In this document: piece after piece, positions 924 to 62,400 of the stretch
Numbering within the stretch: the stretch's first letter is position 1
Layout of the letters: each line of letters begins with the position of its first letter
Assembly (NCBI GenBank): GCA_003222535.1
Contig: QHWJ01000233.1
Span: 13,736 to 77,735, forward strand
DNA length: 64,000 nucleotides
Reading direction: 5' to 3'
DNA from: Acidobacteriota bacterium
Lineage (GTDB): Bacteria; Acidobacteriota; Vicinamibacteria; Vicinamibacterales; CAVVIG01
The notes under the pieces: model-generated
Databases searched by the model: none
What the model saw: only the letters and a program-made list of their open reading frames with translations
Told to the model about the DNA's origin: nothing
Position numbers and translations under genes: made by a program

Positions 924-967
924 GGGGACTGAGGGGACTGGGGACTGGGGACTGGGGACTGGGGATT
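924..967. repeat. tandem heptamer array (GGGGACT)x6
   Basis: GGGGACT GA GGGGACT GGGGACT GGGGACT GGGGACT GGGGATT read directly. The same unit recurs at 48865-48916 and 62383-62400. Confidence 0.9.
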
Positions 968-1072
968 GTAGAGTTGAGAGTTAAAAGGCAAAACGGAAAC
1001 AGCAAAGGCGACGAGCAGAAGGTTGGCGTGCCCTCTGCCCTAGCCATCAGCCATGACTGATTTCTTTTCTCG

Positions 1073-2482
1073 TTACTGCTTCTGCGCGGCGGTGGGCGTT
1101 GCCTGGGCCGCGTCGATGCTGAACGTCAGGCCCGTGTACATCATCTCTTCCCAGGTCTGATCGCCCCAGAACACGTCTTTCGACGGGTCGGGGTTCGACG
1201 GGTTGTTCTTCGAGTTGTCATACCACGCCGTCGCATGGATCTTCGTGCCCTTCGGCAGCTTCAGCGGCTGCTTGAAGACGTAGTCGGTCTGCCAGTTGAA
1301 GTCGTACTTCGGCACGGAGAGGATCGTCTCCGTCCGGCCGTCCGGATACGTGGCTTCGTAGGTCCACCGCGCGCCGCGCACATGCGTGTGCGGCAGCATG
1401 CTCCACATCGTGACATCCTGGCTGATCGTCATCTCGGCATCGACGCGGAAGTCGTTCGCGCCGGGCGGAATGTGGAGGCTGCCATTGATCAGCGACGCGA
1501 AACGCACCTCGGTCTGCGGCCGCGCCCTGGCGAACTTGACGGCGATGCGCGTGCGGTCGGTCGTCGCCTGACCGTTCGCCGTGTAGTGCGTCTGGAGGAT
1601 GAGGGTGGCGCCGGCCGGCAGCTTCATGGCGCTGCCCTCCTGATAGGTGCGCACGAGCTGACCCGGCGCGAACCCGCCGATCGACGGCCCCATCCGCGGC
1701 GCCGGGCGATCGTTGGGACCCAGAGGCTTCCGCTGCTCGGGCGGCAACGGGCGGCCGCCGGTCTGGCCCGCCGGAATCTGCGTGGTGCCTTCCGGGAACG
1801 TGAACAGCGGAGCGGGACGCGGCATCGGCTGCGCGGAGGGCGCCGGCGGGGCCGCCTGCGGCGGTACGGCTGGCGGCGGTGTGCGCGCATACACGATGAC
1901 GTGGTGCAGGACGCTCGGATTGCCCGCGCGGACTTCCATCGCCTGAATCCACTTGTCCTCGGCGAACGTGGTCGGGACCTCGAAGTACTGGTACGCGATG
2001 GTGCCTTCCGCGGGGATCGGATAGTCCTCCGACATGCTGAACACGGCGTCGGGCTGCCCCATCAGCCACTCGGTGGCGTAGGTGGGCTCCGCCGGGAGAT
2101 CGGCCGGGCTGCCTTCGGGCGCACCGGCATTCACCCACTGCACGATCGTGTTCTTCTCGAGCTCGGTCAGACGGCGATCGTTCAGGAATTCGCCGTGCGA
2201 GGGATCGGCGTGCCACGGCGGCATCGTGCCCTTCGCCACGCGCGTGGCGATCGACCTGGCCCAGGGGCGCGCGTCCTTGAAGGTCAGCAGCGACATCGGG
2301 GCGATCTCGCCCGGCCGATGGCAATTCGTGCAGTTCTTGTAAAAGATCGGCGCGACATCTCTGGCGAAGGTTGGTCCGGCGGCCGCCGGCGGGGCCGTGG
2401 AGGCCTGGGCGCCGACTTGCACCGACGCGACGCCAGCCAGCACCGCCAAGGCGGCTGCGGCAACCATCGTTCGAATGATCAT
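1073..2482 (-). CDS. secreted cytochrome-c domain protein with a PHM/DBH-like (copper monooxygenase-type) C-terminal region
   Basis: Signal peptide, heme-binding CTNCH (CxxCH) motif, and His-rich motifs HHVIVY and HTHVRG. This architecture is common in Acidobacteria and Planctomycetes. Confidence 0.8.
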   Translation of the reverse strand: MIIRTMVAAAALAVLAGVASVQVGAQASTAPPAAAGPTFARDVAPIFYKNCTNCHRPGEIAPMSLLTFKDARPWARSIATRVAKGTMPPWHADPSHGEFLNDRRLTELEKNTIVQWVNAGAPEGSPADLPAEPTYATEWLMGQPDAVFSMSEDYPIPAEGTIAYQYFEVPTTFAEDKWIQAMEVRAGNPSVLHHVIVYARTPPPAVPPQAAPPAPSAQPMPRPAPLFTFPEGTTQIPAGQTGGRPLPPEQRKPLGPNDRPAPRMGPSIGGFAPGQLVRTYQEGSAMKLPAGATLILQTHYTANGQATTDRTRIAVKFARARPQTEVRFASLINGSLHIPPGANDFRVDAEMTISQDVTMWSMLPHTHVRGARWTYEATYPDGRTETILSVPKYDFNWQTDYVFKQPLKLPKGTKIHATAWYDNSKNNPSNPDPSKDVFWGDQTWEEMMYTGLTFSIDAAQATPTAAQKQ

Positions 2483-2581
2483 TCGTGAAAGCTCCTGTGC
2501 TGACGTGACGGCCGCGAAGGCGTTGTTAAATGGTACGGACCCCTGCTGCAGAGGTCAAGCGCTTTGCTGGTAAGACGTTGA

Positions 2582-2611
2582 GGCCGCGCGCAAGGGTTCA
2601 TCCGCGCGGCC
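2582..2611 (-). terminator. GC-rich stem-loop downstream of cheR-like gene (weak intrinsic-terminator candidate)
   Basis: GGCCGCGCG, 12-nt loop, CGCGCGGCC (9-bp stem). There is no clean U-tract on the minus strand. Confidence 0.3.
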
Positions 2612-2762
2612 CCATAGGCGCACCTACTGCGATTTTCACTTTGGCGTAGCCACCGCGCGAGGGCACGGAGGATATGGAGTCTGCTCCGTTATCTCGGCCT
2701 GCTACACCGAAGTGAAAACAGCGGTAGAAGCTCCAGCCGCCCGGTGCACGGCCGATGCTCCG

Positions 2763-60967: not shown

Positions 60968-60972
60968 TAGAT

Positions 60973-61080
60973 CTAGAAGCGGTACACGATCGTCACCTGC
61001 AGAGCACGCGCCGGCTGCTGATTGCGCATGCCCAGGTAGTTCGGGTTGAACTGTTCGTTCGCGCTGTTGTAGTTGTACGT
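60973..61080 (-). pseudogene. relic of a TonB-dependent receptor C-terminus (35 codons)
   Basis: Minus-strand reading gives YNYNSANEQFNPNYLGMRNQQPARALQVTIVYRF*. This is a typical TBDR terminal strand ending in Phe. An in-frame stop lies immediately upstream. Confidence 0.5.
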
Positions 61081-61104
61081 TCAACCTCCGGAAACCTCCC
61101 CGAA

Positions 61105-61316
61105 CACCTAGTGTCCCGTAACAGTGATTCGTTGCATAAGTCCCGGAGCGCGGCGCCCGGATGGCAAGGCGCGAGGAGCGCGCATACCGGGAGTATGTAA
61201 GCGACGAGCAACGCAGCCAGCCCCGGGGTCCCCAACGCGGCAGCCGCGTTGGGGTGGAGGAGGGATGCCCCGCCCGGGAATTATGTGACGAATCACTGTT
61301 ACGGGACACTAGGGTG
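61105..61316. mobile_element. MITE-like element, copy 4 (212 bp): same core, different 28-bp terminal inverted repeats
   Basis: CACCTAGTGTCCCGTAACAGTGATTCGT ... ACGAATCACTGTTACGGGACACTAGGGTG. The core GATGGCAAGGCGCGA...ATACCGGGAGTAT...GGGGTCCCCAACGCGGCAGCCGCGTTGGGGTGGAG is shared with copies 1-3. Confidence 0.8.
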
Positions 61317-62382
61317 CAGACGCATTTACAACCCCGCCCGGCGAGTTGTCAACAACCTCCAGCTCCACCGGCTGGTTCGCACGCGACGCGCGGTAGATCG
61401 CTTCGATGACCTCGACGCTCTGCCGGCCTTGCGGACCGTCGCAGCACGGGGCTGTCCCGCGCGCGATCGCGGCGAGGAAATCCTCGAGCACCGCACGATG
61501 CGCCGACGCGTCCGCCACGACCGGCGACGAGGCGGCGACCGATGCCGCGCTCGCGGATTCGACGACGAGATCCGTCGGCGGTTTCCGCAGATCCGCGGCC
61601 ACGAGTCGGTCGCCGTCGAGCATGACCGTGCCTTCCGACCCGGTCAGCTCCAGGCGACGCGGGTATCCCGGATACGCCGACGTCGCCGCTTCGATGGTTC
61701 CGAGCGCACCGCTCGCGAACTCGAGCGCCGCCACCGCGGTGTCCTCGACCTGGATCGCATGCAGCCGCGTCGCGACCTTGCCGAACACGCGGCGTACCGG
61801 CCCGAAGAGCCACAGCAGCAGATCGACGGTGTGCACGGCTTGATTCATGAGCGCGCCGCCGCCATCGAGCGCTTGCGTGCCGCGCCACGTCGAGGCGGCG
61901 TAATACTCCGGCGGCCGGTGCCACCGGACGCGCGCCGACACCAGGATCGGCGTGCCCAGCCGCCCGCTGTCCACGATCGCTTTCAGCCGCGCGACGCCGG
62001 GCTTCATCCGATCCTGGAAGATCACGCCGAGCGTGACCCCCGCTCGGGCGGCTTCGGCGATGAGCCGATCGGCGCCGGCCGTGGAGACGTCGATCGGCTT
62101 CTCCACGAGCACGTGCAGGCCGCGTCGAGCCGCGGCAATGCCCTGCTCGGCGTGAAGGCCCGACGGGCTGCCGATGACGACCAGGTCCAGGGGAACGTGT
62201 TGCAGGAAGCGCTCGAGATCGGAGTAGGCCGCGGCACCGCAGCGCACGGCCAGCCGTTCCGCCTTCTCGCGCGTGCGTCCGCAGACCGCCGCGATGCGCA
62301 CGCCCTCGATGGCGCCGGCCGCTGCGGCGTGCGTCTCGCTGATGTTGCCCGCGCCGATCAGCCCGATGTGGACGTCAGCCAT
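61309..62382 (-). CDS. Gfo/Idh/MocA family oxidoreductase
   Basis: IGLIGAGNISETHA Rossmann start and an EKP motif. The last two codons and the TAG stop lie inside the MITE terminal repeat. Confidence 0.88.
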   Translation of the reverse strand: MADVHIGLIGAGNISETHAAAAGAIEGVRIAAVCGRTREKAERLAVRCGAAAYSDLERFLQHVPLDLVVIGSPSGLHAEQGIAAARRGLHVLVEKPIDVSTAGADRLIAEAARAGVTLGVIFQDRMKPGVARLKAIVDSGRLGTPILVSARVRWHRPPEYYAASTWRGTQALDGGGALMNQAVHTVDLLLWLFGPVRRVFGKVATRLHAIQVEDTAVAALEFASGALGTIEAATSAYPGYPRRLELTGSEGTVMLDGDRLVAADLRKPPTDLVVESASAASVAASSPVVADASAHRAVLEDFLAAIARGTAPCCDGPQGRQSVEVIEAIYRASRANQPVELEVVDNSPGGVVNASAP

Positions 62383-62400
62383 CAGTCCCCAGTCCCCAGT

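Follow-up and report, generated by a model that had tools for sequence, protein, structure and literature searches.

We analyzed a 64,000-nucleotide (nt) stretch of the genome of an Acidobacteriota bacterium of the order Vicinamibacterales (contig QHWJ01000233.1 of assembly GCA_003222535.1, positions 13,736 to 77,735), hereafter the window, in which short units of 7 to 9 nt are repeated in tandem arrays between and within the genes. Combining precomputed gene calls, Pfam matches and our own codon-usage caller, we obtained 52 genes with a coding density of 89.3%, the remaining 10.7% being non-coding. An earlier reading of the letters alone, here called the sequence-only reading, had listed such arrays; Tandem Repeats Finder (TRF) placed period-7 arrays at nearly all of its coordinates, and with our own reading of the sequence essentially every site was recovered as described. 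An array consists of two to seven copies of a unit that is 7 nt long, less often 8 or 9 nt, and at least nine distinct canonical units occur in the window. The arrays are a real and striking repeat landscape in this Vicinamibacterales soil population.

As a null model for array counts, we used dinucleotide-preserving shuffles of the window. In a comparison with 100 of them, perfect arrays of at least three copies numbered five at period 7 (0.01 expected) and one at period 8 (0 expected), and none was found in the window at periods 9 to 15. With mismatches tolerated (score of at least 13), there were nine arrays at period 7, one at period 8 and two at period 14, the last being doubled heptamers; the remaining periods from 4 to 15 gave none in the window. 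A looser threshold returned 17 period-7 arrays against 1.05 expected in the shuffles, an excess of about 16-fold, with 12 of the 17 falling in the non-coding tenth of the sequence. Autocorrelation of the intergenic DNA peaked at lags 7, 14 and 21, and that of the coding DNA showed 3-periodicity only. The density was about 26 arrays per 100 kb in the window and, at a stricter threshold, 8.9 per 100 kb in 203 kb of related soil contigs. The latter contained periods 7, 8 and 9 only (18, 24 and 9 arrays; none at 4–6 or 10–12), although the contigs had been chosen by an element with an 8-nt unit and the period-8 count is therefore biased upward. The CACGAAA, CGCAAAG and CGCAGAG groups, listed earlier as 7-nt units, have periods of 8 to 9 nt.

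The same unit recurs at distant sites, as had been claimed: canonical units coincided in four pairs among 13 loci, against 0.16–0.22 expected from the heptamer composition (P = 2e-5 to 8e-5). The 7-nt families are GGGGACT (three loci), ATGGCTR (three to four), AGTCTGA (two), GGTCCTT (three to four), TCCGCAA (one), GCACCTC/GCACGTT (two, at 12676 and 17394) and AATTCCA (one); GTCTCGGT and CACGAARA are 8-nt families, and CGCAAAG/CGCAGAA forms a 9-nt family. A stop codon or Shine–Dalgarno content as a rule common to the units was rejected, as it fits some units (AGTCTGA, TAATGGC and AAGGACC) but not others. Pairing of an array with its reverse complement, earlier said to be usual, was found at about nine of about 23 sites, so that about 40% are hairpins. 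Their stems span roughly 15 to 70 bp with spacers of 9–28 nt, and the predicted folds of all nine inverted pairs beat those of shuffled sequences (z = -2.8 to -7.4). Long hairpins able to pair in several registers are present as proposed.

The arrays lie mostly at gene boundaries, and stop-to-start intervals are often filled exactly by them (26806, 27258 and 62383-62400). Coding sequence is involved at five of the listed sites: the arrays at 12676, 18156 and 24905 are within coding sequence, the one at 16071 lies on the purA stop and the one at 38002 provides a start codon. Three arrays are in-frame inserts, in the AMP-binding, histidine ammonia-lyase (HAL) and HAMP-SpoIIE genes. The HAL case is the clearest, with an insert of about 24 amino acids (residues about 163–191) that is missing from all solved HAL structures. 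The purA gene takes its final 10 codons and its stop from the TCCGCAA array, and the acyl-CoA synthetase gene takes its final seven codons and its stop from the 3' arm of the hairpin at 12456. At 38000, the N terminus of the periplasmic binding protein, charged and then hydrophobic, lies within a CACGAA half element. The signal peptide (MQPRKHEETKKHTKKKNKFSVLAVLLLAVAC, window 38002-38100) seems to come from this half element, whose purine-rich arm gives the charged region and whose pyrimidine-rich arm gives the hydrophobic one.

Variation among strains and relatives

The sequence closest to the window was scaffold_26 of ERZ28573640 (in reverse complement), with 99.9% identity, and 16 further strain loci from soil metagenomes (99.1–99.98% identity) covered positions 5985-64000. 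An essentially identical protein, given as 100% identical along its entire length, is attributed in one source to a Vicinamibacterales bacterium. The relatives, named by our locus numbers, were L100 (97% identity), L101 (96%), L098 and L099 (about 90%), and L018, a Vicinamibacterales metagenome-assembled genome (MAG) that was the nearest species-representative genome found (73% purA identity). A purA scan of genome contigs returned mostly distant phyla and one close relative, the remainder serving as a cross-phylum control set.

Orthologous arrays carried alleles differing by whole units, the variation in unit number that the sequence-only reading had pointed to as a check. Between strains, indels of at least 7 nt fell in tandem repeats and comprised whole units, with the one exception of a 30-nt deletion in the binding-protein gene of L008; shorter indels occur elsewhere too. 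The array of GTCTCGGT had alleles of 32, 40 and 48 nt, and the (CAGTCCC)n spacer at 62383 measured 20, 25 or 32 nt. In the lepB hairpin (alleles of 73 and 87 nt), one strain had 14 nt more in the 5' arm and another (L004) 7 nt more in the 3' arm, which indicates that the two arms vary independently in unit number. Multi-register pairing tolerates such independent change of arm length. In the hairpin at 23146, L004 had four single-nucleotide polymorphisms, including one compensatory pair (U–A to C–G).

The relatives, of which L018 and L098/L099 are syntenic with the window, showed larger differences. In L098/L099 and L018, the Cys/Met-metabolism gene and the DedA gene overlap (TGATG); the SpoIIE and RNase III genes are 1 nt apart in L098/L099 and about 74 nt apart in L018. 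In the window, the same junctions hold spacers of 450 and 200 nt, respectively, made of GGTCCTT-family hairpins. The spacer-free junctions of the relatives suggest that the arrays were gained recently and are therefore not essential. In L101, the Cys/Met–DedA stop-to-start interval is filled by a single undivided GGTCCTT/AAGGACC hairpin of 169 nt (predicted -120 kcal/mol). This is the intermediate state: in the window, an element of ~280 nt (26936-27214) later entered the 3' arm at CTAA and now separates the units at 27216 from the rest of the hairpin at 26806. L100 is no case of an absent whole hairpin, as L101 shows that the ~280-nt element had simply inserted elsewhere.

The relatives also bear arrays of their own at other junctions, some of them of the window families, such as an AATTCCA hairpin in the DedA/CutA1 gap; in L098, the orthologous purA/HAL gap holds (CGACTAC/TGACTAC)x6. 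The coding-sequence arrays in SpoIIE and HAL are older, being common to the window and L098, and their units have changed in concert. The SpoIIE array reads GAAGTCT in the window versus GAATTCT (x4.9) in L098, and the HAL hairpin CGCAAAG/CTTTGCG versus CGCsGAG/CTCTGCG, with both arms altered; the HAL insert is missing from L018. At L098 5383-5600, following the orthologue of window gene 20981-22168, we observed a hairpin of 8-nt units (GTGAATTG x7.7 / CAATTCAC) and then four copies of a ~33-nt repeat. At window 37201, ~80 nt are missing in comparison with L005–L008, namely the terminal part of a CACGAA element together with the first ~20 amidohydrolase codons; the loss is a genuine deletion or else a collapse during assembly.

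Repeats of other kinds accompany the arrays (Table 1). The copy of the ~280-nt element at 26936 has CTAA on either side and is absent from L101; in L100, the element sits elsewhere, at the CTAG of the stop codon. Given the differing outer stem of the fourth copy, the element may be either a MITE or a structured RNA; Rfam finds nothing in it. Strain L001 lacks two of its modules (7534-7573 and 7602-7640), which are therefore polymorphic insertions. The GTAG-headed hairpins are separate from the arrays and look like classical REPs, and the CTTTACCGGTAAAG palindromes are probably operators of the LacI-family repressor.

Table 1. Arrays, hairpins and other repeats of the window (z, predicted fold compared with shuffles; dot, hairpin not assigned to a strand)
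Feature	Position	Strand	Placement and remarks
GGGGACT array, about 6 units, unpaired	922-968	+	TRF 933-965 at 100% match; perfect run; tandem (-) gap between cytochrome-c-like gene stop (1073) and next gene start
ATGGCTG/A array, 2.3 units	1041-1058	-	15 nt downstream of stop at 1073
GATGGCT array, 2.1 units	7772-7788	+	Immediately right of ~280-nt inverted-end element
Hairpin (AAGTCTG)n / (CAGACTT)n	12456-12527	.	Between convergent lepB-like and acyl-CoA-synthetase genes; arms 93% complementary; z -6.4
GCACCTC array, 2.9 units	12676-12695	+	Within AMP-binding coding sequence, in extra loop of about 10 amino acids
CGCAGAA-family half element (GGGTTCCGCGGTTTCTGCGTTG), then TCCGCAA array of 4.1 units	16037-16102	+	TCCGCAA array (16071) overlaps purA stop
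GCACCTC/GCACGTT arrays and decayed CGACTGR array	17394-17480	+	purA/HAL divergent gap, upstream of purA start
TCGTACG x2.1	17621-17638		purA/HAL divergent gap
(GAC)6 and 9-nt-unit hairpin (AACGCAAAG / CTTTGCGnn)	18136-18221	+	In frame in HAL; z -2.8
Hairpin (GGTCCTT)n / (AAGGACC)n	23146-23297	.	Between SpoIIE-phosphatase stop and RNase III start; longest, 68-nt arms; z -6.2
GAAGTCT/GAAGTTT array, 4.3 units (30 nt, in frame)	24905-24934	+	Inside HAMP-SpoIIE gene
Hairpin (GTCCTTG)n / (GGACCrr)n	26806-26934	.	Begins at Cys/Met-metabolism gene stop codon; z -7.4
GGACCAA x5, rest of 3' arm of hairpin at 26806	27216-27258	-	Ends 2 nt before DedA start
CGCAGAG/CGCCGAG-type hairpin	29903-29970	.	Adjoins NhaA start, divergent gap; z -3.4
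Hairpin (TAATGGC)n / (GCCATCA)n	31654-31752	.	2 nt past GD_AH dehydratase stop; scaffold gap here in L006; z -7.1
CACGAA-family element	37150-37200	-	Truncated in window, which lacks ~80 nt present in other strains
CACGAA-family half element (AAATGCAACCACGAAAAC...)	38000-38062	+	Gives ATG and N-terminal signal-peptide region of periplasmic binding protein
GTCTCGGT array, 8-nt unit, 5.1 copies	41676-41716	+	TRF
Complete CACGAA palindrome (CACGAAnn / nnTTCGTG, ending GGTTGCATTT)	43625-43722	.	35 nt upstream of OYE gene; z -4.9
Hairpin (GGGACTG)2 / (AGTCCCC)3	48864-48917	.	Fills convergent TonB-type receptor/rhodanese gap; z -4.5
CACGAA-family half element	50612-50651	+	
AATTCCA array, 5.7 units	50768-50810	+	Ends 1 nt before fucosidase stop
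GGTCCTGGTCCT, 2 units	59897-59908	+	15-nt spacer within operon; minimal, may be chance
CGCAGAA / TTCTGCG hairpin, 9-nt units	60875-60956	.	Downstream of AP-endonuclease-family gene; z -3.8
(GGGGACT)2.7	62382-62402	-	Fills 18-nt spacer 62383-62400, TonB-receptor stop to GFO-oxidoreductase start
~280-nt element, 21-nt inverted ends (CAGCCCGTGGTGAAAGTCTGG...CCAGACTTTCACCACGGGCTG)	7450-7728, 8874-9155, 26936-27214; variant 61107-61308		Variant keeps core, with different long outer stem
GC-rich mini-hairpin CCCCAACGCGGCAGCCGCGTTGGGG, about 25 nt each	7612, 7670, 9078, 26990, 27137, 61230		Modules of ~280-nt element
GTAG-headed REP-like hairpins (GTAGTGTCCGGCTTCAGCCGGAC / GGTCCGCCTGAAGGCGGAC)	27873-28000, 43452-43474, 36303, 39057, 55604-55649, 12717		Partly 29-34-nt tandem
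Palindromes CTTTACCGGTAAAG, single or doubled	31766, 45228/45250, 52262/52284		Upstream of sugar-catabolism genes, beside LacI-family gene
Perfect 39-nt tandem duplication	41716-41794		Single copy in L005, L007, L009
C-rich 9/18/27-nt repeat block	30000-30121		27 nt longer in L005
19-mer TTCTAAAGCCGTGTTCTGG	6576-6594, 7380-7398		After stops of successive response-regulator and Ysc84-like genes

The CACGAA element and shared termini

Four window sites of the CACGAA family have a 15-nt non-periodic motif in common, and we used it as the query in a scan of metagenomes. Among the matches listed, about 50 of 80 loci, on separate soil contigs and all with a GC content of 0.60–0.68, bear a CACGAA palindrome of the structure AAATGCAACC(ACGAAnnC)n...(GnnTTCGT)nGGTTGCATTT, with the consensus AAATGCAACCACGAA[GA]nCACGAA...loop...TTCGTGnnTTCGTGGTTGCATTT. 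The element has, among the same matches, a modal length of 77 nt (range 69–150 nt) and 2–10 units per arm. Like MITEs, it has terminal inverted repeats, AAATGCAACC...GGTTGCATTT being present in at least 26 full copies. The flanks read among the matches listed held no direct repeat beside the elements that would represent a target-site duplication. Twelve aligned copies had invariant termini and 6-nt cores and freely variable 2-nt linkers and loops; the paired columns never varied. We also considered the element as a coding unit by virtue of its terminal ATG and rejected the idea as a general one: the open reading frames mostly have 10–60 codons, and the binding-protein gene of the window is the only one to use the ATG.

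Two further families share sequence outside their periodic parts. The AATTCCA array at 50768 is half of a family that elsewhere makes a hairpin with a conserved loop, and the AATTCCA hairpins of three separate contigs (L098, L104 and L217) have the loop GGAATGCGTGnnCGAATTCC in common. The composite TCCGCAA array at the end of purA recurs in the unrelated contigs L117, L129 and L132. The conserved non-periodic ends and loops, together with the hairpin architecture, point to dispersal.

Explanations for the arrays

The window has 34 intergenic gaps of at least 15 nt (8 convergent, 17 tandem and 9 divergent), and arrays occur in 17 of them, not in almost every gap as the sequence-only reading stated. 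They are found in five convergent, 10 tandem and two divergent gaps, that is, in 15 of the 25 gaps holding a 3' end. The 3'-end specificity once suggested is not significant (Fisher P = 0.12). Six or seven of about 10 hairpins come after a stop codon, and many arrays have no inverted partner, precede genes or lie within them.

On balance, we lean toward the arrays being dispersed, non-essential repeats that spread by copying, grow by slippage, have their arms matched by template switching and survive at harmless sites. A few unit families would be copied to new sites, as their common termini and loops suggest. Arrays already established grow and shrink by whole units, probably through replication slippage, and the concerted change of the arms most likely comes from intrastrand template switching (quasi-palindrome correction) that keeps them complementary, possibly with the help of selection. 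Purifying selection would leave copies only in stop-to-start intervals, convergent gaps and tolerant in-frame loops, and such survival only where genes stay intact would explain the gene-boundary pattern. The elements are not required regulators. RNA effects of the array hairpins are possible, and it is plausible that those on transcripts (termination, RNase III processing and translation uncoupling) are side effects or occasional exaptations; in one case, an element has plausibly donated the start codon and signal-peptide region to a gene.

Several observations weigh against this reading. The poverty of the divergent gaps in arrays (two of nine) and the better folding of the sense than the antisense strand in four of the five hairpins of known orientation are weak hints of selection at the RNA or positional level. 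The CACGAA pattern, with its invariant cores and termini and its variable linkers and loops, would suit a sequence-specific binding protein at least as well as it suits neutral selfish DNA. We found no mobilizing enzyme, target-site duplication or insertion intermediate, no RAYT (Y1 transposase) in the Pfam lists of the window and loci genes, and no clean presence/absence polymorphism of a whole hairpin among the near-identical strains. The census covers 64 kb and about 200 kb of fragments.

The array hairpins could instead be functional RNA structures (bidirectional terminators dispensing with a U-tract, 3' stabilizers or RNase III sites) selected at operon ends. They are stable, with z down to -7.4, their arms change together across species, and both the strand bias and the share of hairpins and arrays at 3' ends are in line with such a role. 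Moreover, the window shows no excess of canonical terminators (9 versus 9.5 expected from shuffles) that might do the job instead. The array hairpins themselves lack canonical U-tracts, as first reported: the GC-rich hairpin downstream of a stop is there, and the U-tract is absent or weak. We nevertheless consider this explanation unlikely. The placement bias is not significant, over half of the arrays are unpaired, and arrays occur also in 5' regions, in an 18-nt spacer within an operon and in frame within genes. The relatives that lack any array or spacer at the same junctions argue against a required terminator role, copy number differs within one population, and the family cores are conserved in sequence and show no covariation. 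A scan of the window against Rfam 15 at the gathering threshold gave no match, and sub-threshold matches to one hairpin region in an E-value scan were miRNA-precursor look-alikes, which we discarded as meaningless.

Similarly doubtful is the view that the arrays are iterated sites for IHF/HU-like nucleoid proteins or global regulators. It accords with the conservation of 6-nt cores at a fixed 8-nt spacing between variable linkers and with the inverted half-sites that have variable spacers or stand alone, and it has been proposed for the same architecture in Geobacter metallireducens (PMC2700814). At least 10 unrelated unit sequences would, however, require many proteins. The sites appear, disappear and change size over very short evolutionary distances, some lie inside genes, and the gene and Pfam tables of the window list no candidate binder beside the arrays.

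Of 80 purA loci drawn from many phyla, those with strong period-7 arrays belonged only to Acidobacteriota (five, two of them with hairpins), Cyanobacteria (three), Omnitrophota (two) and Thermodesulfobacteriota (one, with a hairpin); the many proteobacterial loci among the 80 had none. One dedicated system with a 7-nt register, such as a sequence-specific enzyme or a nucleoprotein machine, might write, copy or maintain inverted arrays at gene junctions in Acidobacteriota, Cyanobacteria, Desulfobacterota and Omnitrophota, with the units as its recognition sites and not as passive products of slippage. We see little probability in this. The sharing of units across phyla was discarded as a sign of a common recognizer, as it does not exceed that of control heptamers: in viral contigs, GGTCCTT arrays gave 21 matches and AAGTCTG arrays nine, and arbitrary control heptamers gave 0, 5 and 50. 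Given the arrays of control heptamers, the fact that GGGGACT is also the unit of a Nostoc STRR is no evidence of a common recognizer. In 12 viral contigs of IMG/VR (L223, L229-L235, L238-L240 and L242), (GGTCCTT)n adjoins (TTCGCGAGGA)n at a conserved gene end, and the region may be an origin or a regulatory region.

Slightly less probable still is a history with no dispersal, in which a polymerase that slips with a preference for about 7 nt builds each array locally from a chance heptamer (the model of Mrazek 2007) and local template switching supplies the inverted partner. The whole-unit indels, the dominance of period 7 in unrelated phyla and the arrays of arbitrary heptamers in viral contigs are all as this history would have them. 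Against it stand the recurrence of units at unlinked loci far above expectation and the termini, loops and order of unit variants common to separate contigs of a family. The GGTCCTT family, furthermore, occupies two junctions that are separated by 3.5 kb and in relatives have no spacer, and the CACGAA family, at the scale sampled, already shows shared terminal or loop sequences and a star-like phylogeny. Finally, scaffolds break or bear N-gaps exactly at arrays (L005, L006 and L010), but an origin of the arrays as short-read assembly artefacts, the alternative that the sequence-only reading had raised, can be dismissed, as they are base-for-base the same or different by whole units in at least four, and up to seven, independent assemblies made from different samples with two assemblers, appear in NCBI MAGs as well and have homologues in relatives.

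Comparison with known systems

REP/BIME sequences, REPINs, MITEs and the Rickettsia palindromic elements are small palindromic extragenic repeats that have many families and vary among strains, and the Rickettsia elements also enter genes in frame. The window elements resemble them as small palindromes that are scarce in divergent promoter gaps but differ in having tandem-repetitive arms, with no GTAG or CGTC head on the array hairpins and no target-site duplication, linked RAYT or transposase seen.

Cyanobacterial heptamers of the STRR type were reportedly described by Mazel et al. in 1990. The similarities comprise 7-nt units, several families per genome, a mostly intergenic location, some inverted pairs and an unknown function; in the window, too, head-to-tail 7-nt copies exceed chance and fall into several, mostly intergenic, families. 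Rotated and reverse-complemented, STRR1 CCCCAGT is identical to GGGGACT, although the sharing of units is not above background. STRR arrays differ in reaching 26 units, in occurring in AT-rich genomes and in having been studied for G-quadruplex formation. Repeats of GGGGA(C/T)T in Nostoc and of GGGAATC in Xanthomonas are likewise intergenic and sometimes inverted (PMC4692102).

Heptanucleotides are the commonest long simple-sequence repeats (LSSRs) in many bacteria, and their proposed origin is slippage of a polymerase with a 7-nt contact (Mrazek, Guo and Shah 2007, as relayed in PMC4679880). The LSSRs and the TAACTGA repeats of Beggiatoaceae resemble the window arrays in the favored heptamer, the sporadic phylogeny, the proposed slippage and the position near-upstream of starts. 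The surveys treat arrays as arising in place, whereas the window families have non-periodic ends and loops and form hairpins.

The closest architecture is that of G. metallireducens, which has several classes of paired tandem hepta- and octanucleotide sites, called global regulator sites, as well as GGACCGG heptanucleotide elements (Aklujkar et al. 2009; PMC2700814). Its genome also has 49 copies of a four-heptamer element within and between genes; the sites and the four-heptamer elements are absent from G. sulfurreducens, and the sites were read as binding IHF/HU or a regulator, without tests (PMC2700814). Common to both systems are several classes per genome, three to five tandem units of 7–8 nt, opposite-strand pairs with a variable spacer, and intergenic and intragenic sites that are missing from a sister species. 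Tandem 7–8-nt units in opposite-strand pairs with variable spacers make up nine pairs of the window, and the CACGAA loops are variable. Unit look-alikes, from the text of that paper only, are GGACCGG and GGACCrr, TCTCCGTS and TCTCGGTG, and MTYCTGA and AGTCTGA. Geobacter belongs to another phylum, was described with no population or copy-number data, and differs from the window, where the pairs are often tight, continuous hairpins abutting stop and start codons.

The bacterial preference for heptanucleotide repeats and the role of STRR-type sequences have been a question since 1990. The present lineage is a tractable system, with many families in one genome, dozens of co-occurring strains that reveal unit-by-unit change, relatives that bracket the birth of whole hairpins between formerly overlapping genes, and in-frame insertions that reshape proteins, namely a loop of histidine ammonia-lyase and one signal peptide. 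Should the elements disperse, they would represent a new mobilization mechanism in abundant soil bacteria; should their action be on RNA, a lineage seemingly devoid of canonical terminators would have in them its main terminator-like structures. In practice, the arrays break short-read assemblies and mislead gene callers about starts and stops.

Our literature search found no paper on such elements in Acidobacteriota or with the CACGAA element sequence, and searching with the element sequences returned unrelated primers only. The suggestion that nothing comparable had been described is nevertheless contradicted by the precedents above (PMC4692102, PMC4679880 and PMC2700814): the window arrays belong to a class on record since 1990 as STRRs and since 2009 in Geobacter. 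What is new here is the host lineage, the breadth of the families, the description of a CACGAA palindrome of ~77 nt as a widespread element, and the population and sister-species evidence on the speed at which these structures are born, resized and incorporated into genes.

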